Shown in pieces: positions 9,322-51,400 of a stretch of 64,000 nucleotides of DNA. This stretch comes from an uncultured bacterium. Its GTDB lineage: Bacteria > Chloroflexota > Anaerolineae > B4-G1. The notes under the pieces are model-generated. The model did not search any database, was not told where the DNA came from, and worked only from the letters and a program-made list of their open reading frames with translations. Where the stretch lies: positions 1,816-65,815 of the forward strand of contig CBFDTD010000003.1 in NCBI GenBank assembly GCA_965612745.1, written 5' to 3'. Each line of letters begins with the position of its first letter. The stretch's first letter is position 1. The translations under genes and the position numbers were made by a program.

Positions 9322-9330
9322 ACGATTTTT

Positions 9331-10191
9331 CTAATTCGGCGATGGTTCTACCAGGATGGCCGTGATGTTGTCACGTCCTCCGGCCTGATTTGCGGCCGTG
9401 ACCAGACCCTCGCATGCTGCCTGAAGCGAGTAGGAAGTCGTTACAATGTGGATCATCTCCGCCTCGCTCACCATACTCCATAGCCCGTCACTGCAAAGCA
9501 GCAGACGCCCCCCCTGAGGGATAGTTCGTATGTAAGTGTCCACTTCCAGCACACCTTTCTGGCCGACGGCACGGTACAGCACGTTCTTCTGCGGGTGAAT
9601 AGCGGCCTCCTCGCGCGTAAGTTGCCCTAACTCGACCAGACGGTCCACCAGCGAGTGATCGTGGGTGATCTGATCCAGTTTCCCCTCCGTGACAATGTAG
9701 GCCCGGCTATCTCCTACGTGGGCGACGTAGGCTCGCGGCCCGAGCACCAGCGCGCAGGTCAGGGTTGTGCCCCCACCGGGCACTTGATCCGTCACCGCCC
9801 TATTGGCCGCTCGCACTGCATCCACGAGCATCTCCTTCAGCGCAGGTTGCTCCGTGCCACGCTCATTGCTGACGAGTGTCGGCAGATAGAATTGGTGCAT
9901 GATGCGATGAGCCACGATGCGGGCTGCCAAAGAACTGGCGACCTCTCCAGCCTGGTGTCCTCCCATACCGTCGGCCAGGACGAAAAGCCCAAACGGGGGG
10001 AGCGCATCGTCACCATCGTGAGTGGCTGTGATTATGAGCGCTGCATCCTCATTGTGGCGGCGCACCTCACCCACGTCGGTGGCCCACCCGACTTTGAGCC
10101 TGGGACGGGCGGTGGCAGCCACAGGCGGGGACGGGGGATTTGGCGATGTGGATGTTTTCCTCACCCCTAGAAGACTACGTATGAGTTGCAT
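9331..10191 (-). CDS. PP2C-family Ser/Thr protein phosphatase
   Basis: LADGMGGHQAGEVAS, DSRAY, LLCSDGLW, GGRDNITA motifs of PPM phosphatases. Confidence 0.85.
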   Translation of the reverse strand: MQLIRSLLGVRKTSTSPNPPSPPVAATARPRLKVGWATDVGEVRRHNEDAALIITATHDGDDALPPFGLFVLADGMGGHQAGEVASSLAARIVAHRIMHQFYLPTLVSNERGTEQPALKEMLVDAVRAANRAVTDQVPGGGTTLTCALVLGPRAYVAHVGDSRAYIVTEGKLDQITHDHSLVDRLVELGQLTREEAAIHPQKNVLYRAVGQKGVLEVDTYIRTIPQGGRLLLCSDGLWSMVSEAEMIHIVTTSYSLQAACEGLVTAANQAGGRDNITAILVEPSPN

Positions 10192-10221
10192 AGCTACTCT
10201 CTCCCACTAAACAGTGCAGCC

Positions 10222-12219
10222 TCAGGCAGGGAGCGCATACACGTAACGGTCGGTGGATCCAATGTAGACCACGCCGTCCACTATCACAGGCGACGACGTC
10301 ACTGCTCCCTCAGTCTGAAAGCGCCACCGCAAAGCGCCCGTTTGGGCATCCAGGCTGTAGATAGCCCCATCTACCGAACCAAAGTATACCGCCCCTTCGT
10401 CCACGGCGGGGGAAGAAGTCACCTGACCGTCCGTAGCATAACGCCACACCAGATGACCACTCTCGGCATTCAGAGCGTAGAGGTAGCCATCCACGGAGCC
10501 AATGAAGACCAGGCCCCCGCTGACGGCAGGTGAGGACACGACCGGTCCACCGGTGCGATAGCGCCACACCGACCAGCCCGAGCGGATGTCCAGGCTGTAA
10601 ACGTGCCAGTCCTGGCTGCCCACATAGACCATCTCCTCGGCGAGGGCGGGGGATGAGGTCACGCCACGCCGGGCACGAAAGCGCCAGCGCAATTGACCAC
10701 TGATGTCTACAGCGTAGACCATTCCTCCCTCACATCCCACGTAGATCGCGTCATTTCCGATGGCTGGCGACGAACGCACCGGTCCCTCTGCCTCGAACAC
10801 CCAGGCGACACGGCCGCTATGTATATTGGCCGCATAGAGGTGTTGATCGTCGGAGCCAAAGAATACGTGATTAAAGGCGACGCGGGGCGATGACCACACA
10901 CACCCTTGAGTGGGACAGGTCCAAAAGATGCGCCCCGTATCAGCGTTGATCGCATACAGCGCCCGGTCTGCGGAACCGACGAACACACGCCCTTCGTGCA
11001 CGCAGGGGGACGAAGCAATACCTCCTTCGGTAGCGTACTTCCACAGGAACTTCCCATTCTCGGCATTGATAGCGTAGAGATTGTGGTCGTAAGAGCCGAC
11101 GTAGAGGATGCCGTTATGTACCGCCGGTGAGGAGCGGACTTCGTCCTCGCACGCGAAGCGCCACAGGGCCACGACGTCGCTGCTGATGAAGGCCGGAGTG
11201 CCGAAAGAGGTTGTTCCGGTGATACCACGGGTGGAACTCAGGCTCATCAGTGCGCGCTTCATCTCCTCGACCGAGCCGTAGCGCCTGTTGGCGTCGTATT
11301 CCACCGCTCGGTTGATGATTTCCACCAATTCACGGGATACGCTGGGATTGGTTCTGTGAATGGGACGTTCGTGGAAGGAGAATGGCGGCTCTAGTCGTGG
11401 ATCCTGTTTGCTGAGCAGGTGATGCATCGTGGCTCCCAGAGCGTAAATATCCACTCGGGGTTCGGCGATGCCTCGATACTGCTCCGGCGGTGAGTAACCC
11501 TCGGTGCCGATCATAGTGCCTTTCTGGTCAACCTGGAAGATCTTGGCGATGCCGAAATCCACCAGCCGAATGCGGCCATGGTTATCGAGCATGATGTTGG
11601 AGGGCTTGATGTCACGAAAGATGATTGGCTGCGGCTTATGGCTGTGTAGGTAACTCAGCACTTCGCAGATCTGAATAGCCCAGTTCACCACCTGAGCCTC
11701 GGGCAGGAAGCCAGGCGTCTCAAGCAGGAGGGCTTCCAGGTCCTTACCATCTACGTACTCGAGGACAAGGTAACTGCGGTCGCCCTCATTGAAATAATCA
11801 TAGACCTGAACAATACCGGGATGGCTGAGGGTGGCGAGGATACTGGCTTCGCGCTCGAAACTGCGTTTGATCATAGCCCGCACCTGGGGATCCGTGGCAG
11901 TATTGAGCATCTCCTTGACGACGCATAGGCGGGTGACGTTGGGGAAGCGCAGATCCTGGGCCTTGTAGACGGCGCTCATGCCACCAAGCCCCAGCACTCC
12001 CAGAACACGGTAGCGGTTCTGAAGCAAGTGACCATCGGGAAGTCGCCCCTTGACGTGTTCAGGTTGCCGGGGCGGGGAAATGCCTGGCTGTGCTGCCGGC
12101 CCTTTTGAAGAGGAGGAGGATGGGATGCGCGGCTCTTGCGAAGGTTCGGCCTCTGGCGCAGCAGGTCCACTGGAAGAAAAATCGGTTATCTCAATATGCC
12201 GAGTCTCAAGAGACTTCAT
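10222..12219 (-). CDS. Ser/Thr protein kinase with C-terminal PQQ-repeat beta-propeller
   Basis: Hanks kinase motifs (VVKEML, HRDIKPSNIML, DFGIAK, GTEGYSPPE). At least 7 PQQ-like repeats (SSPAV..G.VY.GS.DG.LYALDA.TG..W). Start is uncertain: M22 at 12219 is preferred because a promoter-like TTGCAT-N17-TATAAT lies inside the longer ORF-track start (12282). Confidence 0.8.
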   Translation of the reverse strand: MKSLETRHIEITDFSSSGPAAPEAEPSQEPRIPSSSSSKGPAAQPGISPPRQPEHVKGRLPDGHLLQNRYRVLGVLGLGGMSAVYKAQDLRFPNVTRLCVVKEMLNTATDPQVRAMIKRSFEREASILATLSHPGIVQVYDYFNEGDRSYLVLEYVDGKDLEALLLETPGFLPEAQVVNWAIQICEVLSYLHSHKPQPIIFRDIKPSNIMLDNHGRIRLVDFGIAKIFQVDQKGTMIGTEGYSPPEQYRGIAEPRVDIYALGATMHHLLSKQDPRLEPPFSFHERPIHRTNPSVSRELVEIINRAVEYDANRRYGSVEEMKRALMSLSSTRGITGTTSFGTPAFISSDVVALWRFACEDEVRSSPAVHNGILYVGSYDHNLYAINAENGKFLWKYATEGGIASSPCVHEGRVFVGSADRALYAINADTGRIFWTCPTQGCVWSSPRVAFNHVFFGSDDQHLYAANIHSGRVAWVFEAEGPVRSSPAIGNDAIYVGCEGGMVYAVDISGQLRWRFRARRGVTSSPALAEEMVYVGSQDWHVYSLDIRSGWSVWRYRTGGPVVSSPAVSGGLVFIGSVDGYLYALNAESGHLVWRYATDGQVTSSPAVDEGAVYFGSVDGAIYSLDAQTGALRWRFQTEGAVTSSPVIVDGVVYIGSTDRYVYALPA

Positions 12220-37383: not shown

Positions 37384-39225
37384 TCACTCCACGGTAACAC
37401 TCTTCGCGAGATTTCTGGGTTGGTCCACGTCGCAGCCTCGCCGCACTGCCAGATGATACGCCAGCAATTGCAGCGGCACGACGTTGACCACCGGTGAAAG
37501 CAGCGGCGGCGTCGGTGGGGCGTAGAGCACGTAGTCGGCTTTGGTTGTGATGTCCCCGTCCCCTTCCGTCGCCAGTGCGATGACGATGCCACCTCGCGCT
37601 TTGACCTGCTCGACCTGGCTCACCATCTTGTCGTAGACATGGTCGCGTACGGCGATGGTGACGACGGGCATCGCCTCGTCAATGAGCGCGATAGGGCCGT
37701 GTTTCATCTCCCCGGCCGGATAGCCCTCGGCGTGGATGTAGGAAATCTCTTTCAGTTTAAGCGCCCCTTCCAGAGCGATGGGATAGTTGATGCCCCGGCC
37801 CAGGTACAGGAAATGCTCCCGATCGTAGAAGATATTAGCCAGTTGCTCGTATTCGTCGCCGTGGTTCAGAGTGCGACCCACCATGTCCGGCAGTCGGGCC
37901 AGGTCGTTCACCAGATGCCGCAACTGCGCTCTCTCTAGCACGCCGCGCAGTTCCCCCAGATAGCAGCCCAACAGGTAGAGGTCCACCAGGCTAGCAGTGA
38001 ACGCTTTGGTCGAAGCCACGCCAATCTCTGGGCCGGCGTGCATCAGGATGTAGCCGTCGGAGAGGCGCATCGCCTGGCTGCCGATGACGTTGACGATGCT
38101 CCACAGCCCTGCTCCCTTCGCCCGCGCCTCTTCCATCGCTGCCAACGTGTCCACCGTCTCACCGCTCTGCGTGATGGCCAGCACGGCAGTGTTCTCATTG
38201 ATGATGGGGTCGCGGTAGCGGAACTCGGAGCCGTAGTCCACCTCGACCGGCACGCGGGCCAGCGCCTCCAGAATGAACTTGCCCACGAGGCCGGCGTAGG
38301 CCGAGGTGCCGCAGGCGACGATAATCACTTTCTCCAACGAGCATGCCTTCTCCGGCGTCAATTCCAGATGCTCCAGTCGCACCCGCCCGGCGTCGAAGTC
38401 GGCCCGGCCGCGGATGGTATCAGTGACGGAGCGGGCCTGCTCGTAGATTTCCTTCTGCATAAAATGACGGAACTCCCCCTTGGCCGCTGCCACGGGGTCC
38501 CAGGGTATGGTGTGCACCTCTGCTGTGACCGGCTCGCCACTCAGCGTCGTCACCCGCGCCCCGTCCCGAGTCACCACTGCCATCTGCCGGTCTTCGAGGA
38601 AGATCATCCGGCGGGTGTGCTCCAGGATGGCGGGGATGTCGGAGGCGACGAACATTTCTCCCTCTCCTATCCCGATGGTGAGGCCACCAGCGTTGCCCAG
38701 GCGAGCGGCAACGATGCGGTCGGGTTCGCGGCTGCTGAGGAAGACGAAGGCGTTGGCCCCTTTTACGTGGGTCAGCGCCCGGCGCACCGCCGTCTCCAGG
38801 TCAGCCCCGCCCGCCATGTACCCCTCGACCAGGTGCACCACCACCTCAGTGTCGGTCTCGGAGGCGAAGCACCGTCCCTCGGCCTCCAGTTCCTGTCGCA
38901 GTTGGAGGAAGTTTTCGATGATGCCGTTGTGGACGACGGCGACCTCGCCGGTGACCCCAACGTGGGGATGGGCGTTGCGGCGACTGGGCTCGCCGTGAGT
39001 AGCCCAACGGGTATGGCCGATGCCGATCTGTCCACTCATCGGCTCGGCGTCCACCAGTTCCATCAGGCGGGCCAGTTTGCCGACCTCGCGTCGCACGGCG
39101 ATGGTGTCGCCCTCGACCACCGCCAGCCCGGCTGAGTCGTAGCCCCGATACTCCAGCCGTTTCAGTCCTTCAAGGATGATGGGGGTTGCGTCTCGCAGCC
39201 CCACGTAGCCGACTATGCCACACAT
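37384..39225 (-). CDS. glmS: Glutamine--fructose-6-phosphate aminotransferase
   Basis: N-terminal MCGIVGYVG (Ntn Cys), two SIS domains, C-terminal VTVE. 613 aa. Confidence 0.9.
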   Translation of the reverse strand: MCGIVGYVGLRDATPIILEGLKRLEYRGYDSAGLAVVEGDTIAVRREVGKLARLMELVDAEPMSGQIGIGHTRWATHGEPSRRNAHPHVGVTGEVAVVHNGIIENFLQLRQELEAEGRCFASETDTEVVVHLVEGYMAGGADLETAVRRALTHVKGANAFVFLSSREPDRIVAARLGNAGGLTIGIGEGEMFVASDIPAILEHTRRMIFLEDRQMAVVTRDGARVTTLSGEPVTAEVHTIPWDPVAAAKGEFRHFMQKEIYEQARSVTDTIRGRADFDAGRVRLEHLELTPEKACSLEKVIIVACGTSAYAGLVGKFILEALARVPVEVDYGSEFRYRDPIINENTAVLAITQSGETVDTLAAMEEARAKGAGLWSIVNVIGSQAMRLSDGYILMHAGPEIGVASTKAFTASLVDLYLLGCYLGELRGVLERAQLRHLVNDLARLPDMVGRTLNHGDEYEQLANIFYDREHFLYLGRGINYPIALEGALKLKEISYIHAEGYPAGEMKHGPIALIDEAMPVVTIAVRDHVYDKMVSQVEQVKARGGIVIALATEGDGDITTKADYVLYAPPTPPLLSPVVNVVPLQLLAYHLAVRRGCDVDQPRNLAKSVTVE

Positions 39226-39317
39226 AATGTTCCCTCCCTCATCGTCACCCGGATCCGTACCCGTGATCGGGCCGGGCCCGCTAGGGCATGTAAAGAGCGT
39301 TTCGAAGAGACCTGGGT

Positions 39318-39365
39318 GGAGGCCCGGCTTCAGCCGGGAGATCCCCGCTGAAGCGGGGCCTCCGG
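39318..39365. repeat. Core-only copy of the MITE-A hairpin module
   Basis: GGAGGCCCGGCTTCAGCCGGGAGATCCCCGCTGAAGCGGGGCCTCCGG. Confidence 0.6.
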
Positions 39366-39538
39366 CATTGAGAGTATACTTAACCCAGGCAGAAAGGGCA
39401 AGTGAACTTTAAGCCGGGCAGGGTTGACCATTACGCCGGCAGATGCTACAATTAACAGCGAGATGGCGGAGGACAAGCATCGCTAGGCCGTCGTTGGAGG
39501 CATCGCAAACGGCGCTAGAAGTCAAGGAGGTGACCATA

Positions 39539-39925
39539 ATGGCACGCACAGTCAATCGGGCAGACGATTACCTGTCGCGGGTGTTGAAGCACATCCCTTC
39601 CGAAATTGTGATGGCCTACGTCGCCATCGAGGGAGTGCTGCGCACCAGTTACAACCCTAACGTATGGACCGAGCGGCAGATGCTACAGACGCTGTTGTGG
39701 ATCGTGGCTGCGGCCCTGACAATCCTCACACCCTTCTGGCTGTGGCGCGTGATGCGCGTCAAACGGGTGACGCAACTTTTCATCTCGACGCTCTCGGTCC
39801 CCGTGTGGCTCTTTGCTTTGGGCGGGCCTTTCGCATTGCTTGATTGGTACCAGCCAGCGTTCGGTGCCGTCGTCCTACCCCTCTACACTCTGATCGTCCC
39901 CATCATCTCCCGTTCTGCCCGGTAG
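39539..39925 (+). CDS. Hypothetical membrane protein (3 TM)
   Basis: RBS AAGGAGGTG then ATG at 39539. Hydrophobic segments. Confidence 0.45.
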   Translation: MARTVNRADDYLSRVLKHIPSEIVMAYVAIEGVLRTSYNPNVWTERQMLQTLLWIVAAALTILTPFWLWRVMRVKRVTQLFISTLSVPVWLFALGGPFALLDWYQPAFGAVVLPLYTLIVPIISRSAR

Positions 39926-39932
39926 GTACGAC

Positions 39933-40742
39933 GTGAACCTCGAAATTGGCCTCTCTACCGCCGCCCTCTACCCCTCTCACCTGACCGAGGACGCGCTGAC
40001 GACCATCGCGGGGCTTGGCTTCCGCACGGTCGAAATCTTCCTCCAGGCTGAGGAGGAGTACACCCCGACCTTCGGCGCGGAACTCGACCGACGGCGGCGC
40101 GACCTGGGGTTACGTGTGCACTCGTTGCACCTCTACGTCCCTTACTTCGATCTCTGGTCCCCCTATCCCCGTATGATTCAAGAGACCCGCGCCCGCTTTC
40201 GGCGCTTGTTGGAGATTGCGACTACACTAGAAGCCCGCGCTCTCACCTGGCACGGGCTGCGCTACGGCGTGGACAATCCCCGCCTGATCGCCGCTTTCTT
40301 CGAAAGTGCAGCCTGGGCCGGCGAGCAGGCTCAAACCGCCGGCGTCACTCTCTGCATCGAAAACGTCAGTTGGTGCTACTTGCGCACCCCCGACCAGGTC
40401 ACGGCCATCCGCCAGGCCGACCTACCCGTCGGCTTCACCTTCGACACCTTCCAGGCCGGCGAAAGCGGCACTGACCCTGCTGCCCTCATCCGCGCGATGG
40501 ACAGCCGCCTCGCCACCGTGCACCTGGCCGACTACGCCCCAGGTGGGCCGCGCCACCTGCCCCCTGGTGAGGGCACCCTGGATTGGCCGTCTATCCTGCA
40601 AGCCCTACAGGCCGTGGGTTACGATGGTCCGCTCATTCTCGAACCGGCTCACGTCGAGAATACCACCATCCTCCTCCGCGCCCGCGATTTCGTGCAGCAG
40701 GCATTGACCAATGTGGCACTTACCGAGAACCGAACTCCCTGA
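39933..40742 (+). CDS. Sugar phosphate isomerase/epimerase (xylose isomerase-like TIM barrel)
   Basis: GFRTVEIF...LHLYVPYFDLWSP...LCIENVSW pattern of the AP-endonuclease-2/TIM-barrel family. GTG start. Confidence 0.6.
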   Translation: MNLEIGLSTAALYPSHLTEDALTTIAGLGFRTVEIFLQAEEEYTPTFGAELDRRRRDLGLRVHSLHLYVPYFDLWSPYPRMIQETRARFRRLLEIATTLEARALTWHGLRYGVDNPRLIAAFFESAAWAGEQAQTAGVTLCIENVSWCYLRTPDQVTAIRQADLPVGFTFDTFQAGESGTDPAALIRAMDSRLATVHLADYAPGGPRHLPPGEGTLDWPSILQALQAVGYDGPLILEPAHVENTTILLRARDFVQQALTNVALTENRTP

Positions 40743-41805
40743 GCAGGTCTGCAAACTGTGCGGCGCACGCTCGCACCTCATTGCCGCCCACCTGGGCGTG
40801 TGCCTGGCTTGCATCCGCAGCCGCCCCCAGGAGGCGCTGGAGATCGCCGATGCCGCCCACGCCGCCGCCCGCCGTCTCTTCGGCCTGCCGGAGCGACCGC
40901 CCCGCACCGAGGAGGGCCGCCGCTGCGGACTGTGCGCGCAGGATTGCGTCATCGGCGAGGGGGAGCGCGGCTTCTGTGGCCTGCGCGAGGTGCGCGACGG
41001 CAAACTGCGCCACCTGGCCGGCACCCCCGACCGGGGCCTACTCCACTGGTACCGCGATCCCCTGCCCACCAACTGCGTCGCCGACCCATTCTGTGCCGGG
41101 CACACGCAGCGTGGCAAGCACAACCTGGCCGTCTTCTACGCCGCCTGCACCGTGGACTGCCTCTTCTGCCAGAACTGGCACTTTCGAGAGAGCGACCCGT
41201 TCCACTCCGATAAACTCACCGCCAGCCAGTTGGCCGAGGCCGCCAACCCGCGCACCTATTGCGTCTGCTACTTCGGCGGCGACCCCGCCAGCCAGATGCC
41301 GCACGCGCTGGCCGCCAGCCGCCTCCTGGCCGAACGTGGCATCGTCATCTGCTGGGAGACGAACGGCACTGCTCACCCTCGCCTGATGGACCGTGCCCTT
41401 GATCTCTCTCTTGCCACCGGCGGCTGCGTTAAGTTCGACTTGAAAGCCTTCGACGACAATCTACACCGCGCCCTCACCGGGGCCAGCAATCGCCGGACGC
41501 TTGCGAACTTCGCCCGCGCCGCCGCCCGCTTCGACGAGCGTCCCGAACCGCCCCCCGTCGTCGCCAGCACGCTCCTCGTGCCCGGCTACGTGGACGCCGA
41601 GGAGGTGGGCCGCGTCGCCCGCTTCATCGCCGACCTGGACCCGCGCATCCCCTACGTCCTGCTCGGCTTCGCGCCCCACTTCTTTTTCCCCGACCTGCCG
41701 CGTACCTCCGTGCGCCACGCCGAGGAGGCCGAGGCCGCCGCCCGCGCGGCCGGCCTGACCCGCGTGCGCATCGGCAACCGCCATCTGCTCTCCCGTGACT
41801 ACTGA
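40711..41805 (+). CDS. Radical SAM enzyme of AmmeMemoRadiSam type (PFL-activase-like) with an extra N-terminal Cys-rich extension
   Basis: CGLCAQDCVIGEGERGFCGLREVRDGKL then ACTVDCLFCQNW (CxxxCxxC), and C-terminal PYVLLGFAPHFFFPDLPRTS...VRIGN. The N-terminal 60 aa hold CKLCG...CLAC. The start (overlaps the upstream gene by 32 nt) is uncertain. Confidence 0.6.
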   Translation: MWHLPRTELPEQVCKLCGARSHLIAAHLGVCLACIRSRPQEALEIADAAHAAARRLFGLPERPPRTEEGRRCGLCAQDCVIGEGERGFCGLREVRDGKLRHLAGTPDRGLLHWYRDPLPTNCVADPFCAGHTQRGKHNLAVFYAACTVDCLFCQNWHFRESDPFHSDKLTASQLAEAANPRTYCVCYFGGDPASQMPHALAASRLLAERGIVICWETNGTAHPRLMDRALDLSLATGGCVKFDLKAFDDNLHRALTGASNRRTLANFARAAARFDERPEPPPVVASTLLVPGYVDAEEVGRVARFIADLDPRIPYVLLGFAPHFFFPDLPRTSVRHAEEAEAAARAAGLTRVRIGNRHLLSRDY

Positions 41806-41852
41806 GCCTCTCACTTGACATCTTCGCTCAATCCGCGTACCATTTGTGATAT

Positions 41853-42024
41853 GGGTGTGGCTAAAATCAGTGGGACGTCCGGCTTCAGCCGGAAAATCCC
41901 CGCTGAAGCGGGGCCTCCGGCCTCTTCTCCGGCTTCAGCCGAGCAGGACGTCCGGCTTCAGCCGGAAAATCCCTGCTGAAGCGGGGCCTCCGGCCTTTTC
42001 TCCTCACGAATTTTAGCCAGACTC
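41853..42024 (+). mobile_element. MITE-A copy with internal duplication of the hairpin core (172 bp), TSD TTGTGATAT
   Basis: Direct repeat TTGTGATAT at 41844-41852 and 42025-42033. Two tandem GACGTCCGGCTTCAGCCGGAAAATCC..GCTGAAGCGGGGCCTCCGGCC units. Confidence 0.8.
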
Positions 42025-42031
42025 TTGTGAT

Positions 42032-42796
42032 ATGTACACAGCAGGCATAGACGTAGGCGCGATCACCGCCAAGGCGGCCATCCTCAGCGATGGGGAATTA
42101 CTCGCCACGGCGCTCATCTTTGCCGGATACGACCGGGCCGCCGCCGCACTCCAGGTGCTCGATCAGGCACTGACGCAGGCGGGGCTCACTCGTGACCAAA
42201 TTGCTCGCCTGGTCGCCACCGGCTATGGCCGCGTGCAGGTCCCCGGCGCAGACCGCACCGTCACCGAGATCACCTGCCACGCCCGGGGTGCGCATTACCT
42301 CTGCCCCGACGTGCACACCGTGATTGACATCGGCGGGCAGGATAGCAAGGGCATCGCCGTTGGTCCAGGCGGCAAAGTGCTCGACTTCGTGATGAACGAC
42401 AAGTGTGCCGCCGGCACCGGGCGCTTCCTGGAGGTGATGGCCCACGCGCTGGAGGTGGACCTGGCCGACTTTGGCCGCCTGGCCCTCTCCGCCCCGCGTC
42501 GCGCCAAGATCTCCAGCACCTGCACCGTCTTCGCCGAGTCGGAGGTCATCACTCACCTGACTGCTGGCGTGCCCAGGGATGAGATCGCCGCCGGCATTCA
42601 CGAGGCCATCGCTGCCCGCATCGCCACCATGGTCGGGCGCATACGGGTGCAGGACGTGGTCGTGCTAACCGGCGGTGTGGCCCGCAACGCAGGAGTCGCC
42701 CGTATGCTGGAGGAGAAACTGGGCCACGCCATCCTGGTGCCGGAGCACGCCCAACTGGCCGGCGCTATCGGCGCAGCCCTCATCGCTGGGGGGTAG
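42032..42796 (+). CDS. 2-hydroxyacyl-CoA dehydratase activator (HgdC/BadF/BcrAD-type ATPase)
   Basis: MYTAGIDVGAITAKAAI...IDIGGQDSKGI...DKCAAGTGRFLE is the acetate/sugar-kinase-fold CoA-enzyme activase signature. Confidence 0.8.
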   Translation: MYTAGIDVGAITAKAAILSDGELLATALIFAGYDRAAAALQVLDQALTQAGLTRDQIARLVATGYGRVQVPGADRTVTEITCHARGAHYLCPDVHTVIDIGGQDSKGIAVGPGGKVLDFVMNDKCAAGTGRFLEVMAHALEVDLADFGRLALSAPRRAKISSTCTVFAESEVITHLTAGVPRDEIAAGIHEAIAARIATMVGRIRVQDVVVLTGGVARNAGVARMLEEKLGHAILVPEHAQLAGAIGAALIAGG

Positions 42797-42823
42797 AACA
42801 CGGATTCCAGGACGCCAACGGAT

Positions 42824-43861
42824 ATGCAATCTCCAACCCCCAATCTCCAGTCCCCCAATCTCCACTCCCCAATCGGCTTCCTCACCGCCTACGTGCCGGA
42901 GGAACTCTTCCACGCGGCGGGCTTCACTCCCGTGTTCATCTTCCACACTCCGGACGACCACGGCTACGCCCGCGCCCACCTGCCCGGCTTCACCTGCTGG
43001 ATCGCCGGTTCCGCCCTCGACCAGGCCCTCGCCGGCGAACTGGACGGCCTGGCCGGGATGGCCCTTGCCCAGACCTGCGACACTATGCAAGGGCTAACCG
43101 ACCTTTGGCGACGCAATGTGCCTCACATCCCCCTCTTCCACTTCGGGATGCCGCTGCGCCTGGACGGCCCCTCCGCCCGCGCCTACCTCCTGGCCGAACT
43201 CCGATCCTTGCGTGAGCGAGTGCAGGCCGTGACCGGTCGCCCCATCTCCGACGACGCGCTGCGGGAGAGCATCGCGCTCTACAACCGCACCCGCACCCTG
43301 GTGCGCCGCCTTTACACCCACGCCGCCGACTTCGCCCCACCCGACCTGTACGCGCTGGTGTGGGCCGCTCTCTCCTCTACTCCTCTGCCCCCCTGCTCCC
43401 CTGCTCCTCTGCCCTCTTGCTCCTCTGCTCCCCTGCTTCTCCTCGTCGGCTCTGCCCTGGCTGACCCCGTCCTCTTTGACGTCATCGCCCAGGTTGGCGC
43501 CCGCGTGGCCGGTGACCTGCTGGACCTGGGGGAACGCTACTTCGCGGTGGACGCCGCCGAGGACGGCGACCCCCTCGAGGCCATCGCCGACCGGCTGTTG
43601 GCGCTGGTGCCCACTCCGACCAAGCATCATCCCCAGCACACCCGCACCGCCCACCTGCTGTCGCTGGTGCGGGAGCGCAACGCCGACGGTGTCATCTTCG
43701 CCCGTCAGAAATTCTGCGAGCCCCACGGCTTCGACTACGTGCAACTGGCCCACGCACTGGACCAGGTCGGCGTGCCCCACCTGCTGGTCGAACTGGAGCA
43801 GGCCTCTCAGGCCGGCCAACTGCGCACGCGGGTGGAGGCGTTTGTGGAAATGCTGGCTTAG
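42824..43861 (+). CDS. 2-hydroxyacyl-CoA dehydratase subunit (HgdB-like) carrying a CT-rich octamer-repeat insertion
   Basis: GFLTAYVPEELFHAAGFTPV and LDGLAGMALAQTCDTMQGL align to the HgdB N-terminal blocks. C-terminal FARQKFCEPHGFDYVQL. Insert PLPPCSPAPLPSCSSAPLLLL. Confidence 0.75.
   Translation: MQSPTPNLQSPNLHSPIGFLTAYVPEELFHAAGFTPVFIFHTPDDHGYARAHLPGFTCWIAGSALDQALAGELDGLAGMALAQTCDTMQGLTDLWRRNVPHIPLFHFGMPLRLDGPSARAYLLAELRSLRERVQAVTGRPISDDALRESIALYNRTRTLVRRLYTHAADFAPPDLYALVWAALSSTPLPPCSPAPLPSCSSAPLLLLVGSALADPVLFDVIAQVGARVAGDLLDLGERYFAVDAAEDGDPLEAIADRLLALVPTPTKHHPQHTRTAHLLSLVRERNADGVIFARQKFCEPHGFDYVQLAHALDQVGVPHLLVELEQASQAGQLRTRVEAFVEMLA
43384..43441. repeat. Imperfect octanucleotide (YCTGCTCC)-like tandem repeat / 75-nt polypyrimidine tract inside the HgdB-like gene
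   Basis: CCTGCTCC CCTGCTCC TCTGCCC TCTTGCTCC TCTGCTCC CCTGCTTC. Confidence 0.7.
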
Positions 43862-43915
43862 CGGTATAATCAATCCCAAAATGGGACAAATTTGGGCCAT
43901 TTAGAGGATGAACTT

Positions 43916-44707
43916 ATGACTCTCCGGGACATTCTCAGCGAGAGAGCAGAAGATGAAGGACTGCCCCTCCAGGTACTGATTAAAGAAGCACTCCAGGTCT
44001 ACGCACTGTCCGAGATCTATGACCAGCCGGAGTCGCGCCACATCACTTTCCAGGGAGGCACCTGCCTCCGATTGGTGTACGAGGGAGCCCGGTACTCGGA
44101 AGACGTGGATTGCGTAACCTCACTGGGGATTGAGGAGTTGAAGCCGCTCTTTATGAAAGTGAAGCGTGCACTACTTCACCTTGGCCCCCTGCTCGAAGGA
44201 GAGATTGAGGCCCGTATCCAGAAGGAGAGCCCTGAACTTGTCCGCTGGCAGGTTCGTTATCGTACCGCCGATGTGCCATCCACCTTCGTCAACGTCGAGT
44301 TTGGCTTTTACCCCGCCTACACCGCCCGCGTCGCCTCACTTCACATCCCGCCAGGCCTGCCGGGGCTGCCACTGGTGCTGGTTCGAGCGGAGGAGCCGGA
44401 GGAGATTATGGCCGACAAAGTCGCTGCTATTGCCGGTCGCCCCTACGTCAAGGGACGGGACATCTTCGACCTCTGGCTGCTGCAGAAGAGAGACATCAAG
44501 TTAGACCACGCCCTGGTGGAAAAGAAGTTCGCCGACTACGCTGTACCTCCCGATGGCCTGCGCCGGAATCTGCCACACATCACGCCCGAGATGGTGCGCC
44601 TGGAACTGGAGCGTTTCCTTCCCAGAAGATACCGCGTCCAACTTCAAGGGGAGGCGCTGGAATCACTGGTCGCCGAAGTGAAAGAGCTGCTTGAGTCAGT
44701 AGTATGA
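43916..44707 (+). CDS. AbiEii-family nucleotidyltransferase toxin (type IV TA, DUF1814)
   Basis: ITFQGGTCLRLVYEGARYSEDVDCV matches the GGTAL...RFSEDIDF NTase motif of AbiEii. Start taken at ATG 43916 (RBS GAGGATGA). Confidence 0.75.
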   Translation: MTLRDILSERAEDEGLPLQVLIKEALQVYALSEIYDQPESRHITFQGGTCLRLVYEGARYSEDVDCVTSLGIEELKPLFMKVKRALLHLGPLLEGEIEARIQKESPELVRWQVRYRTADVPSTFVNVEFGFYPAYTARVASLHIPPGLPGLPLVLVRAEEPEEIMADKVAAIAGRPYVKGRDIFDLWLLQKRDIKLDHALVEKKFADYAVPPDGLRRNLPHITPEMVRLELERFLPRRYRVQLQGEALESLVAEVKELLESVV

Positions 44708-45306
44708 AGTACTTCACCCTCGACCGTTGGATTGAAGCCCTGCAACAATTGGGCAGACAAGGAGGCAGGATCCTGACACCACAGGCTCTCTCCTTGGTCT
44801 CCGGTCTGCCCGAGGAAACCGTTCGCAAGGCCCTGCGCCGGTTGGAATTGAAAGGATATGTCAGGCGATTGGGGAAAAGGCTTTACGCCAACACCTTCTT
44901 TCCCCCCACCCTCGAAGAGGTGGCAATGGTGCTGGGCCGTCCTTGCTATGTTTCGTTTGAGAGTGGGTTGGAGCGGCATGGGCTGCTCTCCCAGATGCCC
45001 CTGCTCCTCACTTGTGCCTCGACCGTGGAATCGGGAAGCAAAGAGACGCCCTTCGGGGAGATCCTCTTCCACCGCCTCAAGCCCTCCCTGTTCTTCGGCT
45101 ACGCCGCCAGCGACGGAGTGCTTTGGGCTGAGCCGGAGAAGGCGCTGCTCGATTTCATCTACATCAGCCTCAAGACTGGAGGAGGGCTTCCGTCACTCGA
45201 CGAACTGGCGTGGGAACGGCTCGATTACGCCAGGCTTGAGGAGTGGGCCCGGCGTTACCCCCGTAGCGTGAGGAGAAATCTGATCCCTTGGATTAACAAA
45301 CAATGA
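44704..45306 (+). CDS. AbiEi-family wHTH antitoxin / transcriptional regulator
   Basis: N-terminal wHTH ILTPQALSLVSGLPEETVRKALRRLELKGYVRRLGKRLYA. C-terminal LLDFIYISLKTGGGLP block. ATGA overlap with the AbiEii stop. Confidence 0.65.
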   Translation: MKYFTLDRWIEALQQLGRQGGRILTPQALSLVSGLPEETVRKALRRLELKGYVRRLGKRLYANTFFPPTLEEVAMVLGRPCYVSFESGLERHGLLSQMPLLLTCASTVESGSKETPFGEILFHRLKPSLFFGYAASDGVLWAEPEKALLDFIYISLKTGGGLPSLDELAWERLDYARLEEWARRYPRSVRRNLIPWINKQ

Positions 45307-45309
45307 GGT

Positions 45310-46509
45310 TTGATGCCCAAATATCCCCGTCTCCGGTCGCTTAAAGAGATCAACAGCGTGATGACACGCTACTACGTGCAGCGCAAGGCACTGGCGCGGC
45401 TCAAACCGCTGGCCTACGTCACCAGCGGTGCACCGGTCGAGATCCTGGAGGCAATGGGCATCTTGACGCTCTACCCGGAGAACTACACCGCGCTGTGCGG
45501 TGCGCGCGGGGCCGCCGTTGGCCTAGCCCGTGTGGCCGAGGCGCAGGGCTACCCGGCCGACCTCTGCTCCTACGCCCGCAGCCACGTCGGGGCAGTGCTG
45601 CGTCCCAGGGAGGCACCGCTGGGTGGGATGCCCCGCCCCGACCTGCTGGTCTGCTGCAACAACATCTGCGGCACCGTCCTCAAGTGGTACGAGGCACTGG
45701 CCGCGCTCTACGACGCGCCCCTCTTCGTCCTCGACGTGCCCTTCCAGCGCACCACCCCGGCCGAGCCCCACATCATCACCTACGTCGCCGATCAGTTGCA
45801 GGAGTTCGTCGCCTGGCTGGAGGCGCACACAGGCCGTCGCCTGAAGCCCGACAAATTCCGCTCCGTGCTGGCCCTCTCCCGCGAGGCGGTCGCGCTGTGG
45901 CAGGAGATTCTGGAGTTCGGCCAGTATCGGCCCTCCCCCATCAACGCCCCCGATCTCTTCGTCGCGATGGCCCCCATCGTCGCGCTGCGCGGCACACGCC
46001 GGGCGGTGGACTGCTACCGTCGCCTCAGGGCCGAACTGGAGGAGCGCGTCGCCCACTCCATCGGCGCGGTGCCCGGCGAGCGCTACCGCCTTCTCTGGGA
46101 CAACATCGCCATCTGGTATCGCCTCTACCGCTTCTTCCGTCCCTTTATGGACGCGGGCGCCTGCTTCGTCGCCGATACCTACACCAACGCCTGGACTGTC
46201 GAACTTGACTTGGAGGAGCCCTTCGTCGGCCTGGCACGTGCCTACACCGGCGTGTTCATCAACGTGGACCTGTCCACGCGGTTGCGCATCATCTCCGACC
46301 TGGCCCGGCGCTTCGAGGTGGACGGGGTGGTGATGCACGCCAACCGCTCCTGCAAGCCCTTCTCCATCGCTCAGAACGATATGCGAGACACGCTGCGGGA
46401 CGAACTGGGGCTCCCCGTCCTCATCCTGGAGGCCGACCAGTGTGATGCGCGCCTCTATAACGAGGGGGCAGTACGGGAGCGTGTGGCGGCGTTCCTGGAA
46501 ATGCTGTAG
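45310..46509 (+). CDS. 2-hydroxyacyl-CoA dehydratase subunit (HgdA-like)
   Basis: LLVCCNNICGTVLKWYEALAALYDAPLFVLDVPF and VVMHANRSCKPFSIAQNDM match the HgdA conserved blocks (CCNxxC, NRSCKP). Confidence 0.8.
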   Translation: MMPKYPRLRSLKEINSVMTRYYVQRKALARLKPLAYVTSGAPVEILEAMGILTLYPENYTALCGARGAAVGLARVAEAQGYPADLCSYARSHVGAVLRPREAPLGGMPRPDLLVCCNNICGTVLKWYEALAALYDAPLFVLDVPFQRTTPAEPHIITYVADQLQEFVAWLEAHTGRRLKPDKFRSVLALSREAVALWQEILEFGQYRPSPINAPDLFVAMAPIVALRGTRRAVDCYRRLRAELEERVAHSIGAVPGERYRLLWDNIAIWYRLYRFFRPFMDAGACFVADTYTNAWTVELDLEEPFVGLARAYTGVFINVDLSTRLRIISDLARRFEVDGVVMHANRSCKPFSIAQNDMRDTLRDELGLPVLILEADQCDARLYNEGAVRERVAAFLEML

Positions 46510-46510
46510 G

Positions 46511-46885
46511 ATGTCCGGCTTCTTCGAACGAGTTTATCAACTGGTGCGGCAGGTGCCGCCTGGCAAGGTTACCTCTTATGGGGCGATCGCCCGTATGCTG
46601 GGCCACCCGCGCGCAGCCCGCACCGTCGGTTGGGCATTGCACAGCCTGCCGGATGGCTCCGACGTCCCGTGGCACCGCGTGATCAACAGCCAGGGCCGCA
46701 TCTCCACCAGTTGCCGGGAGCATAGTGCCGACCTCCAGCGGGCGTTGCTAGAGGCTGAGGGGATCGAGTTCGACGAACATGGGTACGTGGACTGGGAGCG
46801 TTTCGGCTGGGAAGGACTCTCTTGGCTGGAAGTTGAGAAAATCGTCGCTTTCCTTGACACCGATACGAAATGCGGTATAATTTAA
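46511..46885 (+). CDS. Alkyltransferase-like (ATL) protein, MGMT DNA-binding fold lacking the acceptor Cys
   Basis: VPPGKVTSYGAIARMLG...VPWHRVINSQG: PWHRV replaces the PCHRV of Ogt/Ada, the ATL hallmark. ATG at 46511 directly after the hgdA stop. Confidence 0.7.
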   Translation: MSGFFERVYQLVRQVPPGKVTSYGAIARMLGHPRAARTVGWALHSLPDGSDVPWHRVINSQGRISTSCREHSADLQRALLEAEGIEFDEHGYVDWERFGWEGLSWLEVEKIVAFLDTDTKCGII

Positions 46886-47269
46886 ATGCAATGAACGCAT
46901 ACTTGGGTCATCTGAGTAATCATATACAAGGCTCGTTGGTCCTCACCGGTGCCTGTTCCACCTTGGGCGATGCACGGGTGACCGGTAGGTGTATGCCTTG
47001 CCATCTGCCCAGGCGGACGTCGGCAGTGTATCTGCCGAGCGGGACGGTAAACTGGCCCTGCCAGCAGGCCAAGGCGCAGTCGCGTGCGGTGGGTGGGACC
47101 GTCAGGGCCTGCATTGCAGATCGGGCATTCTCAGAATTGACAGCACCTTATCAGCACCATACTGCAAGCGCCGCCGAGTTTGCGGCGGCGGCATGGTCGG
47201 TTTCGGGTTACGAGCCCGAATCCTCTCCAGAGGAGGAGGTGTGCGGGGGTACGTGACTTCCCTGATTGG

Positions 47270-47312
47270 CGAGGAGCGCGGGGTCTTACCCAAGACCTCG
47301 CGCTTTTTTATT
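47270..47312 (+). terminator. Rho-independent terminator (GC stem plus TTTTTTATT)
   Basis: GAGCGCGGGGTCTT-ACCCA-AGACCTCGCGC followed by TTTTTTATT. Lies about 390 nt after the ATL stop. Confidence 0.5.
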
Positions 47313-47343
47313 GCACTCTACCAATCCCCGCACCTTCATCTCG

Positions 47344-47511
47344 TTGCGAGGGTGACTACTCAGCCGCCCCGCCAGATTCGAGATCGGACGCAGATTAACG
47401 CGGACTCTCGCAGATCAAATTCAAACATCAGCGTTTGTCGGCGTTCGTCTGCGTCCCAAAGGATGCGCTTCAATGGCTCATCTGAGGTCGGCTGAGTAGT
47501 CACTTGCGAGG
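47344..47511. mobile_element. 152-bp MITE-like element with perfect 15-bp TIRs (GTGACTACTCAGCCG) and 8-bp TSD TTGCGAGG
   Basis: TIR 47352-47366 and its reverse complement at 47489-47503. Direct repeat TTGCGAGG at 47344-47351 and 47504-47511. Confidence 0.7.
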
Positions 47512-47554
47512 TAGAGTAACGGACATCAGGTGTTGGCTCAGTGATCGTTGCAGG

Positions 47555-47627
47555 GCCCCGGTGGCTCAAATGGTAGAGCAGCCGTCTTGTAAGCGGCAGT
47601 GTGGCGGTTCGAACCCGCCCCGGGGCT
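47555..47627 (+). tRNA. tRNA-Thr (anticodon TGT)
   Basis: Manual cloverleaf: acceptor GCCCCGG/CCGGGGC, D-stem GCTC/GAGC, anticodon stem GCCGT/GCGGC with loop CTTGTAA (U33, anticodon TGT, A37), T-arm GGCGG-TTCGAAC-CCGCC, discriminator T. 73 nt. Confidence 0.8.
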
Positions 47628-47630
47628 TCG

Positions 47631-47683
47631 CTCCCCCACCGTCCAGGTGCGCGGGCGCGGGTTTAAGTCCCGCCGGGGGAGCA
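47631..47683 (+). other. Armless tRNA-like minihelix (acceptor stem plus small hairpin plus T-arm-like hairpin, no anticodon arm) immediately 3' of tRNA-Thr
   Basis: CTCCCCC...GGGGGAG 7-bp outer stem ending with discriminator-like CA. Inner GCGGG-TTTAAGT-CCCGC T-arm-like hairpin. CACC-GTCCA-GGTG hairpin. Confidence 0.35.
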
Positions 47684-47701
47684 TCGTGGAGGAGAAAGAT
47701 T

Positions 47702-48226
47702 ATGACAGCGGGCGTTTTATTACTCAATGCTACATACGAACCCCTGCGGGTCATCTCGACCCGGCGGGCAGTCAGCCTGCTGATGCGAGGGGTTGCCGAG
47801 GGCGTCGAAGGCGTCGCGGCCCGGCTGCGCACGCCCAGCACGGTTTTCGAGGTGCCCTCCGTGCTACGGCTGCGCTACTACGTCAACGTCCCCCAGCGCG
47901 GGGCTACGTGGAGCCGCCGTGGCGTTTTGGCCCGCGACGACTACACCTGCGTGTACTGCGGCGTCCGTGTCGGGGAGCGGCGCCATGGCCGGATCCTCAC
48001 CCGCGCCGACTTCAGCGTAGATCACCTCATCCCCCGTAGCCGGGGCGGGAGCAGCACCTGGGGCAACACGGCCTGCGCCTGCCGCTGGTGCAACGGGCGC
48101 AAGGGGAACCGCACGCCCCACGAGGCGGGGATGCGTCTCCGGTGGGAGCCCAAGACGCCTCGCGTCAACTACCTGGTCGTCTCTGGGGAGGTGCCGGCTG
48201 AGTGGAAGGTCTACCTGCGGATGTAA
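47702..48226 (+). CDS. HNH endonuclease family protein
   Basis: CVYCG...VDHLIPRSRGG...WGNTACACRWCNGRKG HNH/His-Me finger motif. RBS GGAGGAG then ATG at 47702. The ORF-track start at 47504 would read through the tRNA and is rejected. Confidence 0.75.
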   Translation: MTAGVLLLNATYEPLRVISTRRAVSLLMRGVAEGVEGVAARLRTPSTVFEVPSVLRLRYYVNVPQRGATWSRRGVLARDDYTCVYCGVRVGERRHGRILTRADFSVDHLIPRSRGGSSTWGNTACACRWCNGRKGNRTPHEAGMRLRWEPKTPRVNYLVVSGEVPAEWKVYLRM

Positions 48227-48316
48227 TGAGCCTCCGGTGCGAAACAAGCGGCCCCGCTCGTATGAGCGGGGCTGCCCTCAATTGGCAAGTTTTTTCCCCT
48301 TATGCTAAAATAATGT

Positions 48317-48415
48317 GAGTCTGGCTAAAATTCGTGGGGAGAAAAGGCCGGAGGCCCCGCTTCAGCGGGGATTTTCCGGCTGAAGCCGGACGTCCCACTG
48401 ATTTTAGCCACACCC
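48317..48415 (-). mobile_element. MITE-A full copy (inverted), TSD AAATAATGT / AAATAATAT
   Basis: Flanking 9-bp repeats at 48308-48316 and 48416-48424 (8/9 identical). Confidence 0.75.
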
Positions 48416-48461
48416 AAATAATATTGACGTGCGCGCTCGGATATCGCGTGAGGTGAGCGGC

Positions 48462-51400
48462 ATGGGAGACGCGAACAATCTTCAACCCCCTCGACACTCC
48501 CAGAACAGGACAGGCCCACAGGTGTGGCCCGTCACGGTGGCACTCATCGTGACAGTGCTGCTGCTGGCTCTGGCCGGTTTCCTGGCCTGGCGCACGACGC
48601 AAGTCCCTTTCCCCGGCCTGTTCACTGAGCCAACCCTTATCGTCAATGACCTGGGTAACCCCGCTTGGCCCGGCTATGCTGCCGGCCTGCGCTTCCCCGA
48701 TCACCTGGTCGCGCTTGACGGTCGGCCACTGGAAAGCACTGGGGCGCTCATGCGCGAACTGGCACGGTACGAACCCGGTGACGTGGTCACGCTGACGGCA
48801 CAGGGCGAGGACGGCACACTACGCGATGTCCGCGTGCGCCTGGAGCCTTTCCCCATCGAGGGGCTGATCAGGTTCTTCGCCCTGCCCTACGCCCTGGGGC
48901 TGATCTATCTGGGAATCGGCACCTGGGTCTTTCTGGCGCGACGGCACGAGTCGACCGGGCAAGTGTTCGCGATGCTGTGTGCTATGCTCGCGCTGAGCCT
49001 GGGTTTGCTGTTTGACGTCTACACCACTCATCTGCTCCCGCGCGTGTGGATCACCGCCCTCTCTCTGGTCGGCAGTGTTGCTATTCACATGGCCCTGGTG
49101 TTCCCCCAGCGGATACGATTTCTTGAGCGCGTCTCTTTCCTCTATTACCTGGCCTACGTGCCGGGTCTGGTCATTGCCGTTGTCAATCAACTCACTATCC
49201 TGAACTTCGAAGCGCCCACGGCCTACTTCGACACCTGGTTTGCCGCCTTTGTCTTTGGAAGTGCCGGCATTGCCGCCGTTCTGGCGATGATGATCTATCG
49301 GCATCGTCGTTCCCGGTCGCCCATCGTGCAGGCCCAGGCGCGTATCATCCTATGGGGAAGTCTACTGGCCTTCGGTCCAGCCGCAGCATGGTTCATCATC
49401 ACCCGTTACACCGGGGGGGCTTTCCCCCCAGTGCTCATTCTGCCCTGGCTGATCTTCTTTCCCCTGTCTATCGCTTACGCCCTCCTCCGTTATCGCCTGT
49501 TCGACATCAACCTGGTGATCAGTCGGAGTATCGCCTATGCGCTGCTGAGCGCCGTGGGGGTTGGGATCTATTTCCTCTTACTCTTCCTGATCGGCCGCGT
49601 GTTCGGCGTGACGCTGCAAGCCGGCCATCCCTTCGTCCTCGGCGTCTTCATCCTCTTGCTGGCGCTGCTACTGAACACGGTATGGACGCGCTTGAGGCGC
49701 GTGGTGGATCGAGTTTTCCTGCGCGAAGCGGTTGACCACCGTCAGATTGTGCGCCGCTTCGTCAACCGGCTGACTGAGACGATGGACCTACCATCGGTCT
49801 TGAGCATTCTGGATGAGACGCTGGAAGCAGCCTGGCACCCGCAATTTGCGGCGCTATTCCTGTACGATTCACGTCGTGCGCGCTATGTGCCTCACGTTAT
49901 CGGGAGTAGCCCCTTCCCACCTGTGGCCTTCACCCAGGAGGGGCCATTGGCCCACCAAATGCTCAAGCGGCGCAAAAGCATTTACCTATACAGAGACCGT
50001 CCCCTGCCTTCTCACCTGGCGGTCGAGCACGAACCGTTGGATGCTCTGCGCCCTGCCCTCTTCATCCCGGTGCCAGGCCACGGTTGGCTGACGTTAGGAC
50101 CCAAGCGCAGCGGTGCGCCTTTCTCCTCGGACGACTTGGTCACCCTGGAGGCATTGGGCTCCCACGCGGCAGTAGCCCTGGAAAAAGCACGTCTGGTCGG
50201 CGACCTGGAGCGGCGAATAACAGAGGTAGACGTGCTACGTTTGGTCGGGCAGGCGGTCAATTTCACGATGGATGTGGATGACCTGATGGAGTTGATCTAC
50301 GCTCAGACCAGCCGCGTGCTTGATACGAACAACTTCTACATCGCATTATACAACTCCGAGAAGGAAACCCTCTCCTTCGCCTTTTACATCAAAGATGGGG
50401 AGCGGCTGTATCCAGACGACGAGTGGCCGGTGGAAATGGGCCTGACCGGCGAAATTGTCCGCACAGGGCGGCCCATTGTGACGGATGACTACATCCAGGA
50501 ATGCCTCCGCCGGGGGATCACGCCCGGGGGCCGACCCGGGCGAGCCTGGATGGGAGTGCCGCTCAGTGCCGGCGATCAGGTCATCGGAGTGATGAACGTC
50601 TCAAGTTTCGACCCCACCGTGACCTATTCCGACGAACAATTGAAGATTTTCTCCGCCATCGCCGACCAGGCCGCCGCGATTCTGGATAAGGCACGCCTTT
50701 ATCGGGAGACGGAGGAACGTGCTCAGCAGTTGGCTGCCCTCAACGAGGTCGGCAGCGTCATCACCTCAACTTTGGATCTGCAGGCGGTGTTGAACCTGAT
50801 TATGGAGAAGGCGGTTGAACTCATCCAGGCCGAGGCCGGGTCGCTGGTGCTGGTGGACCAGGATACCGGTGAGTTGGTCTTCGAAGTAACCGCCGGCCCA
50901 GGCTCTGCCAACCTGGTGGGCACACGCCTTTCCCCTGGCACCGGTATCGTAGGCACGGTGGCTCGGGAGGGCAGGCCCATTATCATCAGGGATGCCCAGT
51001 CCGACCGGCGGTGGTACCGGGGTCTCGATGACCGCACCAGGTTCATTACTCAGTCCATCATCGCCGTGCCAATGATCAGCCGGGGGCGTACCATTGGCGT
51101 GATTGAACTGCTCAACCGGCGCGATGGTGTGCCCTTTGACGAGGACGACGAGCGGCTGCTGGCGGCGTTTGCGGCCAACGCTGCCGTTTCCATCGAAAAT
51201 GCCCGGCTGTTCACCCAAACCGATCAGGCTCTCGCTGCGCGGGTAGAAGAACTCTCAATGATGCAACGCATTGATCGGGAACTCAACGCCACACTGAACT
51301 ACCAGCAGGTAATGGAGATCACTCTGGATTGGGCGCTGCGGATGACAGGAGCGGACATTGGGCTTCTGGGTGTTGTCGTCGAGACTGAGGAAGGAAAACG

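Follow-up and report, generated by a model that had tools for sequence, protein, structure and literature searches.

Organization of the Locus

The locus described here lies at positions 42032–46509 of a 64 kb stretch of DNA from an Anaerolineae bacterium (hereafter, the window). It consists of five open reading frames (ORFs) on the plus strand, in the order hgdC-like, hgdB-like, AbiEii-type nucleotidyltransferase (NTase), AbiEi-type protein, and hgdA-like, so that a putative toxin–antitoxin pair separates the subunit genes of a dehydratase-like enzyme. In an earlier reading of the sequence (the original prediction), the pair had already been placed between these subunit genes, and both this order and the ORF coordinates given there were confirmed. 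The families it had named for all five genes are backed by Pfam, NCBIfam, and PADLOC profile searches, as well as by fold searches.

The host operon shows the pattern of the 2-hydroxyacyl-CoA dehydratase/benzoyl-CoA reductase superfamily, namely, a BcrAD_BadFG ATPase activator together with two paralogous HGD-D subunits. Its first gene, at 42032–42796, encodes the hgdC-like activase of 254 aa (PF01869, BcrAD_BadFG, E 1e-62; TIGR00241, acyl-CoA dehydratase activase, 7e-88). The hgdB/hadC-like beta subunit of 345 aa follows at 42824–43861 (PF06050, HGD-D, 2e-67), and the hgdA/hadB-like alpha subunit of 398 aa occupies 45313–46509 (PF06050, 7e-83; listed ORF, 45310–46509). The nearest NCBIfam families are HadB for the alpha-like subunit (2e-79) and HadC for the beta-like subunit (1e-46). 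Both matches fall far below the equivalog cut-offs, and therefore, the substrate of this Hgd homologue cannot be assigned, in agreement with the original prediction. Among the loci that carry the abiE pair, the hgd genes show ratios of nonsynonymous to synonymous substitution rates (dN/dS) of 0.11–0.30.

Between the subunit genes, the NTase gene was located at 43916–44707 (263 aa; listed ORF, 43892–44707) and the abiEi-type gene at 44704–45306 (200 aa). The ATG at position 43916 is preceded by a ribosome-binding site, AGAGGA, at 43903–43908, and since all close NTase homologues are 263 aa long, we take this codon as the start. The hgdA start is most likely the ATG at 45313, as judged from its homologues; exact-sequence look-ups of HgdA with either of its two start codons found no record. 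Of the junctions first proposed, the ATGA overlap between the NTase and AbiEi genes (44704–44707) therefore stands, while the hgdB–NTase gap becomes 54 nt rather than 30 nt and the abiEi–hgdA gap most likely 6 nt rather than 3 nt. Altogether, hgdB and hgdA are separated by 1,451 nt (43862–45312), and the tight adjacency of the subunit genes that is typical of relatives is missing here. A scan of the plus strand from hgdB to hgdA found no terminator-like site, which makes read-through plausible. The suggestion that all five genes are cotranscribed is thus plausible to this extent. A sole shared promoter is less likely, because the 54 nt spacer contains a conserved promoter-like −10 box of its own, and transcription of the operon probably does not depend on one promoter alone.

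The NTase and AbiEi Proteins

The NTase scores 98.1 bits (E 1e-27) with the PF08843 (DUF1814) profile, whose curated cut-off is 22.5, and the PADLOC AbiEii match (1e-37) spans its full length. The motif quoted for it at the outset, GGTCL...RYSEDVD, is present as FQGGTCLRLVYEGARYSEDVDC. Pol-beta motifs I–IV were defined by Dy et al. (2014), who also identified the residues needed for toxicity. In the window protein, these motifs correspond to G47 and G48 (motif I), R59 and D63-V-D65 (motif II), K168...R175 (motif III), and R181-D182-x-x-D185 (motif IV), and every residue found necessary for toxicity in that study is retained. The catalytic residues and S61 are invariant or nearly so in an alignment of 30 homologues. 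S61 itself, located in RYSEDVD two residues before the first catalytic Asp, is invariant in all 30, and the equivalent position is the phospho-acceptor T65 in AbiEii and S78 in MenT3.

The assignment of the second protein relies on several matches. It is recognized by PADLOC as AbiEi (2e-27) and by NCBIfam as TAA_AbiEi (6e-16, under the equivalog cut-off), and the Pfam AbiEi_4 match (0.0026) is subthreshold when taken alone. The protein consists of an N-terminal winged helix and a C-terminal domain, homologous to AbiEi and Rv2827c. Sequence-only searches of the PDB were weak, returning JHP933 alone for the NTase (E 0.03) and nothing meaningful for AbiEi, so fold searches on AlphaFold2 models were used instead. 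The NTase model has a predicted local distance difference test score (pLDDT) of 95.3, and its best Foldseek matches are JHP933 (5e-11), MenT4 (2.5e-10), and MenT3/TglT (template modeling score of ∼0.66). For the AbiEi model (pLDDT 93.6), the top PDB folds are AbiEi itself (6y8q; 6e-6, 204 columns) and Rv2827c (1zel), both over the full length. A search of the rest of the window for paralogues of the pair found none. The dN/dS values among the hgd-embedded loci are 0.07–0.17 for the NTase and 0.10–0.17 for AbiEi.

Toxin-First Gene Order

In canonical AbiE and MenAT systems, the antitoxin gene lies upstream of the toxin gene, while in the window, the NTase gene precedes abiEi. The original prediction had regarded this reversed order as unusual. 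Metagenome contigs were scanned with the NTase alignment, and tblastn searches were run with the window proteins. An AbiEi-like gene was found 3′ of the NTase gene in every locus with an NTase identity of at least ∼32% and sufficient downstream room (∼30 loci). These include NTase homologues with 45–66% identity in unrelated contexts, all of them toxin-first, and three further contexts with 59–66% identity show the toxin-first order with the 4 nt overlap as well. The canonical AbiEi-then-NTase order is mostly seen for more distant NTases, and the pair of Pantoea At-9b is also canonical. A toxin-first pair is annotated in RefSeq on plasmid pADEG01 of Ammonifex degensii KC4 (ADEG_RS11010/11015), with the NTase gene first and the AbiEi-like gene second, as in the window. 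Its proteins are 33% (NTase) and 34% (AbiEi) identical to those of the window. The names SanaTA and SdenTA suggest a toxin-first order as well. RlegTA, SanaTA, and SdenTA go back to Sberro et al. (2013), as summarized in a 2026 preprint on AbiE (bioRxiv 10.64898/2026.01.19.700257). According to this preprint, the gene of the validated COG5340 antitoxin RlegA follows that of the DUF1814 toxin RlegT; SanaTA and SdenTA are treated there as related systems, and AbiE is reclassified as a type VII system. The toxin-first order is therefore a clade-wide trait of this AbiE subfamily that is already known, and its description as unusual has to be withdrawn.

The window pair resembles RlegTA, as described, in having the DUF1814 NTase gene first and the COG5340 gene second. 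It shares with the RlegTA/SanaTA/SdenTA type an antitoxin of ∼200 aa, composed of a winged helix and a C-terminal domain, and a Ser/Thr two residues before the DxD motif. The location is different: RlegTA, SanaTA, and SdenTA are stand-alone or carried on mobile elements, whereas the window cassette is chromosomal and lies between enzyme subunit genes. The canonical AbiE systems (Lactococcus lactis pNP40 and Streptococcus agalactiae) and MenAT1–4 of Mycobacterium tuberculosis belong to the same two families, with the same folds, motifs I–IV, and phospho-acceptor position. The 4 nt gene overlap is also shared, and the palindromic element before the window pair suggests that here, too, the antitoxin may be autoregulatory. 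Their gene order is the inverse of that in the window, and the solved members are only 16–21% identical to the window proteins.

Retention and Loss in Related Genomes

A scan with HgdA, taking one genome per species, yielded 79 hgd loci, the closest of which are from Anaerolineae metagenome-assembled genomes with 60–90% HgdA identity. Searching these loci by tblastn with all window proteins, we found neither the NTase nor AbiEi in any of the 79. Nearly all of them have hgdB directly next to hgdA, the gap in the close Anaerolineae being ∼2–30 nt, and the pair is absent from each of the 18 close Anaerolineae loci in which the hgdB–hgdA junction could be evaluated. The absence from all 79 loci indicates that the pair is not an integral component of the Hgd system.

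A different picture emerges when the closest NTase homologues in protein databases are taken as the starting point. The homologues with 99, 82, 82, 79, and 77% identity belong to five distinct lineages (drawn from loci L080–L090), and all five are in the hgdB–hgdA slot, with the order hgdC–hgdB–NTase–AbiEi–hgdA. Those NTases examined with 66% identity or less have non-hgd neighborhoods. On the question raised at the outset of whether the pair occurs routinely in related genomes, the answer is therefore twofold: it does not, but it has been conserved by descent in the same slot in at least five lineages. None of the six abiE-positive loci has a truncated cassette ORF, and homology between these loci extends through both the left and the right junction. 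The synonymous divergence (dS) among the hgd-embedded loci reaches ∼1–1.6, and the closest pairs, L082 with L086 and the window with L089, are the same for the cassette and for the flanking genes. Judging from these comparisons, the cassette is co-inherited over the long term under purifying selection.

Losses can also be recognized. The locus L001, whose HgdA is 90% identical to that of the window, does not contain the pair; the last 56 nt of abiEi are kept beside hgdA, with 87.5% identity to L089. L001 also retains a 56 nt fragment of a hicAB region of the type found in L081, and these remnants are located at L001 positions 9890–10000. In L002, ∼15 nt of the left junction (TGATATAGTCAACCC) are fused to the right junction, and both scars are kept.

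Other insertions were observed in the same operon. L010 has a major facilitator superfamily (MFS) transporter gene between hgdC and hgdB (878–2119) and a minus-strand hicAB between hgdB and hgdA (3196–3770). L081 has a vapBC-like pair (an 82 aa protein and a PIN protein) between hgdC and hgdB (4112–4791), and hicAB between abiEi and hgdA (7453–7943). The modules higBA, hicAB, and mqsRA are toxin-first, small, autonomous, patchily distributed, and often lost. Their protein families and toxic mechanisms are unlike those of the window pair; hicAB is nevertheless found in the hgdB–hgdA spacer of relatives, and toxin–antitoxin modules nested in chromosomal gene arrays are a further parallel.

In a neighbor-joining tree of HgdA, the abiE-positive loci (the window, L089, L086, and L081) are interspersed with abiE-negative loci within one clade. 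These observations are most simply read as a single old insertion that was later deleted several times, in an operon whose spacers act as a sink for toxin–antitoxin modules. The cassette flanks were searched for terminal direct or inverted repeats, and no transposon-like ends were detected, the palindrome in the spacer being the sole notable inverted repeat. No recombinase is present at the cassette.

Predicted Control Region of the Cassette

The 54 nt spacer upstream of the NTase gene is better conserved than the flanking coding DNA. The sequence TATAATCAAT, directly after the hgdB stop codon, is invariant in six loci with a coding dS of ∼0.3–1.6. It is followed by GGGACAAATTTG(G/T)(G/C/T)CC, which forms a perfect 16 bp palindrome in L089 and an imperfect one, GGGACAAATTTGGGCC, at 43883–43898 of the window. 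A predicted promoter extends over 43842–43870 on the plus strand, where a −35-like TTGTGG (43842–43847), located within the 3′ end of hgdB, lies 17 nt upstream of a perfect −10 box, TATAAT (43865–43870). A scan for consensus promoters missed it because the −35 element matches at 3 of 6 positions.

The palindrome is part of a wider pattern. Of 18 toxin-first loci, 17 have the motif GACRAWNNYG at a distance of 28–31 nt upstream of the NTase start, whereas the background rate is 0.015 occurrences per 70 nt. These loci span 32–100% NTase identity and unrelated genomic contexts, and in the distant ones, the motif follows clear TTGACA/−10 boxes. Within the 64 kb window, the palindrome motif occurs once, before the NTase gene; it is not found upstream of hgdC, and no second operator-like site was detected in the window. 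We propose that the palindrome is probably the candidate AbiEi operator of an autonomous, autorepressed promoter, a proposal based on its conservation across loci. An RNA hairpin was considered as another explanation of the palindrome and judged less likely, since most loci have a degenerate right arm without compensating changes in the left one. An Rfam scan of 39000–48600 revealed no riboswitch or leader before hgdC or the NTase gene.

The architecture of the candidate operator differs from that of S. agalactiae abiE, in which the operator comprises two inverted repeats of 11–23 bp (IR1/IR2) spanning the promoter. In the window, a single compact 16 bp palindrome follows the −10 box and precedes the ribosome-binding site. 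The toxin-first AbiE subfamily thus gains a cis-element that can be tested, a short palindrome whose consensus is roughly GACAAAnnTGTC and whose distance to the toxin start is fixed.

Proposed Origin and Role of the Cassette

Taken together, the window region 43862–45312 is, with high probability, an autonomous, old, and sporadically lost toxin-first DUF1814/COG5340 (AbiE/MenAT) cassette that resides in an operon spacer and is not a part of the enzyme. We propose that the cassette entered the short hgdB–hgdA spacer in the ancestor of an Anaerolineae subclade, and would then have been vertically inherited, with selection maintaining its function, while a number of sister lineages deleted it. 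By analogy with the family, the NTase would add nucleotides to tRNA 3′ ends and thereby arrest translation, and AbiEi would neutralize it by binding and by inducing autophosphorylation of Ser61. AbiEi may also repress the cassette promoter through the palindrome, and the module could serve addiction and/or abortive phage defense. The sole link to Hgd would be transcriptional, through read-through from the hgd promoter and a cassette promoter reading into hgdA, and the insertion would disrupt the tight hgdB–hgdA coupling of relatives. Of the two options originally offered for the pair, the results favor an addiction cassette captured by the operon, in the form of an autonomous toxin–antitoxin cassette. 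The second option, a pair that controls or modifies the dehydratase system, is disfavored by its absence from all 79 hgd loci, by the hicAB and vapBC-like modules at the same junctions, and by the operator motif that stands only before the NTase gene.

Several points weigh against the autonomous-cassette interpretation. The HgdA tree is weakly supported internally (bootstrap values of 6–84), and exchange of the cassette between close lineages, via recombination in the flanking hgd genes, may have occurred in a way that is not separable from vertical descent and loss. The GC content of the cassette (0.58), although lower, differs little from the mean of the window (0.61), and it is the hgd genes that are GC-rich outliers in all five lineages; base composition was therefore rejected as evidence of a recent foreign origin. 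The weak TTGTGG −35 element lies in hgdB coding sequence, and the promoter may consequently be hybrid or nonfunctional. The palindrome is not significant within the window, as one or more matches with up to 3 mismatches appeared in 28 of 100 shuffles, and its weight therefore rests on the cross-locus conservation. Finally, a domesticated function would equally produce long retention in one operon slot.

This last point leads to the possibility that the pair is a domesticated Hgd accessory, with the winged-helix protein regulating the hgd operon or the dosage of hgdA and the NTase modifying a tRNA, a nucleotide, or a protein tied to the dehydratase. At least five lineages have retained the pair in the same slot, under purifying selection and over a dS of ∼1, which is what such a role would leave behind, and hgdA, 6 nt past abiEi, would be transcribed from the cassette promoter. 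We nevertheless consider this very unlikely, because the 79 hgd loci without the pair include sister lineages with 85–90% HgdA identity, L001 and L002 have deleted it and kept remnants, and unrelated toxin–antitoxin modules occupy the same junctions. Moreover, the nearest non-hgd homologues share the palindrome in unrelated contexts, and the window holds no second operator-like site. A co-option of the cassette has a similarly small probability. In this case, an AbiEi-repressed internal promoter would set the level of hgdA separately from that of hgdC and hgdB, and with it the alpha:beta ratio, or the NTase activity would depend on the state in which the oxygen-sensitive dehydratase is found. 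If true, it would explain why the exact slot was kept over a dS of ∼1 in at least five lineages, and it would make a toxin–antitoxin module a regulatory part of a metabolic operon.

The patchy presence of abiE on a poorly resolved HgdA tree could also mean that the hgdB–hgdA spacer is an insertion hotspot, into which abiE entered several times or through which it spread by recombination, with no single ancient insertion. The hicAB modules in the same spacer (L010 and L081), the vapBC-like pair and the MFS gene in the hgdC–hgdB spacer, and the only rough congruence between pairwise NTase and HgdA distances are compatible with this view. However, the homologous junctions in all abiE-positive loci, the agreement of the closest pairs between cassette and flanks, and the absence of terminal repeats or a recombinase argue for one event, as does the finding that every NTase examined with at least 77% identity is in an hgd operon and none with 66% or less is. 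Repeated entry therefore appears unlikely, though somewhat less so than a role in the Hgd system. An inactive relic, in which the two ORFs are decaying and functionless, is extremely improbable. Chromosomal toxin–antitoxin modules often decay, and L001 and L002 show loss at this very site, but the ORFs are untruncated in each of the six loci that carry abiE, no catalytic residue has been lost, the dN/dS of 0.07–0.17 indicates constraint, and the upstream element is conserved.

As an autonomous cassette, the pair offers a clean, datable example of a toxin–antitoxin module within a metabolic operon. Relatives reveal the stages of its history: insertion into a spacer that measures 2–30 nt where no insert is present, long vertical persistence under purifying selection, and repeated deletion with remnants, while the neighboring spacers collect other toxin–antitoxin families (hicAB and vapBC-like). 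The location is unusual yet explicable; no new kind of system is revealed, and the finding has no bearing on the Hgd substrate. A literature search on toxin–antitoxin modules inserted within operons returned nothing specific.

Variation in the hgd Operon and Its Surroundings

The hgdB gene contains an in-frame 24 nt tandem repeat of 2.7 copies at window positions 43372–43436, which encodes a PLPPCSPAPLPSCSSAP stretch in the hypervariable linker of HgdB. A 14 nt repeat of 3.4 copies is found at the 5′ end of the gene (42827–42874). HgdB is 345 aa long in the window, compared with 369–382 aa in relatives. In L014, the whole hgdC–hgdB–hgdA–MGMT block appears twice, at 1831–5342 (+) and 8325–11836 (−), with identical percentage identities; this inverted duplication looks like an assembly palindrome artifact.

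A hairpin element resembling repetitive extragenic palindromic (REP) sequences or miniature inverted-repeat transposable elements (MITEs), GGCTTCAGCCGGAAAATCCCCGCTGAAGCGGGGCCTCCGGCC, with a length of ∼42 nt, occurs in eight copies in the window, where none is expected by chance. The copies are at 6092, 17833, 39326, 41881, 41954, 48346(−), 59962(−), and 62576(−). Two of them, in tandem, fill the spacer between the radical S-adenosylmethionine (SAM) gene and hgdC, just 5′ of the operon. The radical-SAM gene (40711–41805) is AmmeMemoRadiSam-like and overlaps a TIM-barrel gene by 32 nt. In L086, L087, and L088, it is reduced to two short fragments (2541–2783 and 2901–3965), and recA lies between the TIM-barrel gene and hgdC, indicating that the upstream neighborhood of the operon is also fluid.

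Downstream, an MGMT-like ORF is listed at 46442–46885, containing a DNA_binding_1 domain only. This gene is the conserved 3′ neighbor of hgdA in the close Anaerolineae. The listed GTG start would overlap the 3′ end of hgdA by 68 nt, and since the gene starts ∼5–20 nt past hgdA in relatives, translation probably begins near 46514 instead. At 46854–46881, in the 3′ end of the MGMT-like gene, there is a perfect sigma-70 consensus promoter (TTGACA, 16 nt, TATAAT) that points toward the tRNA region. There, ARAGORN calls a 101 nt tRNA-Arg(ACG) at 47172–47272 that is absent from the Rfam scan; this may be a spurious prediction, or else the tRNA may be atypical or contain an intron. The sole Rfam match is a tRNA-Thr at 47555–47627.

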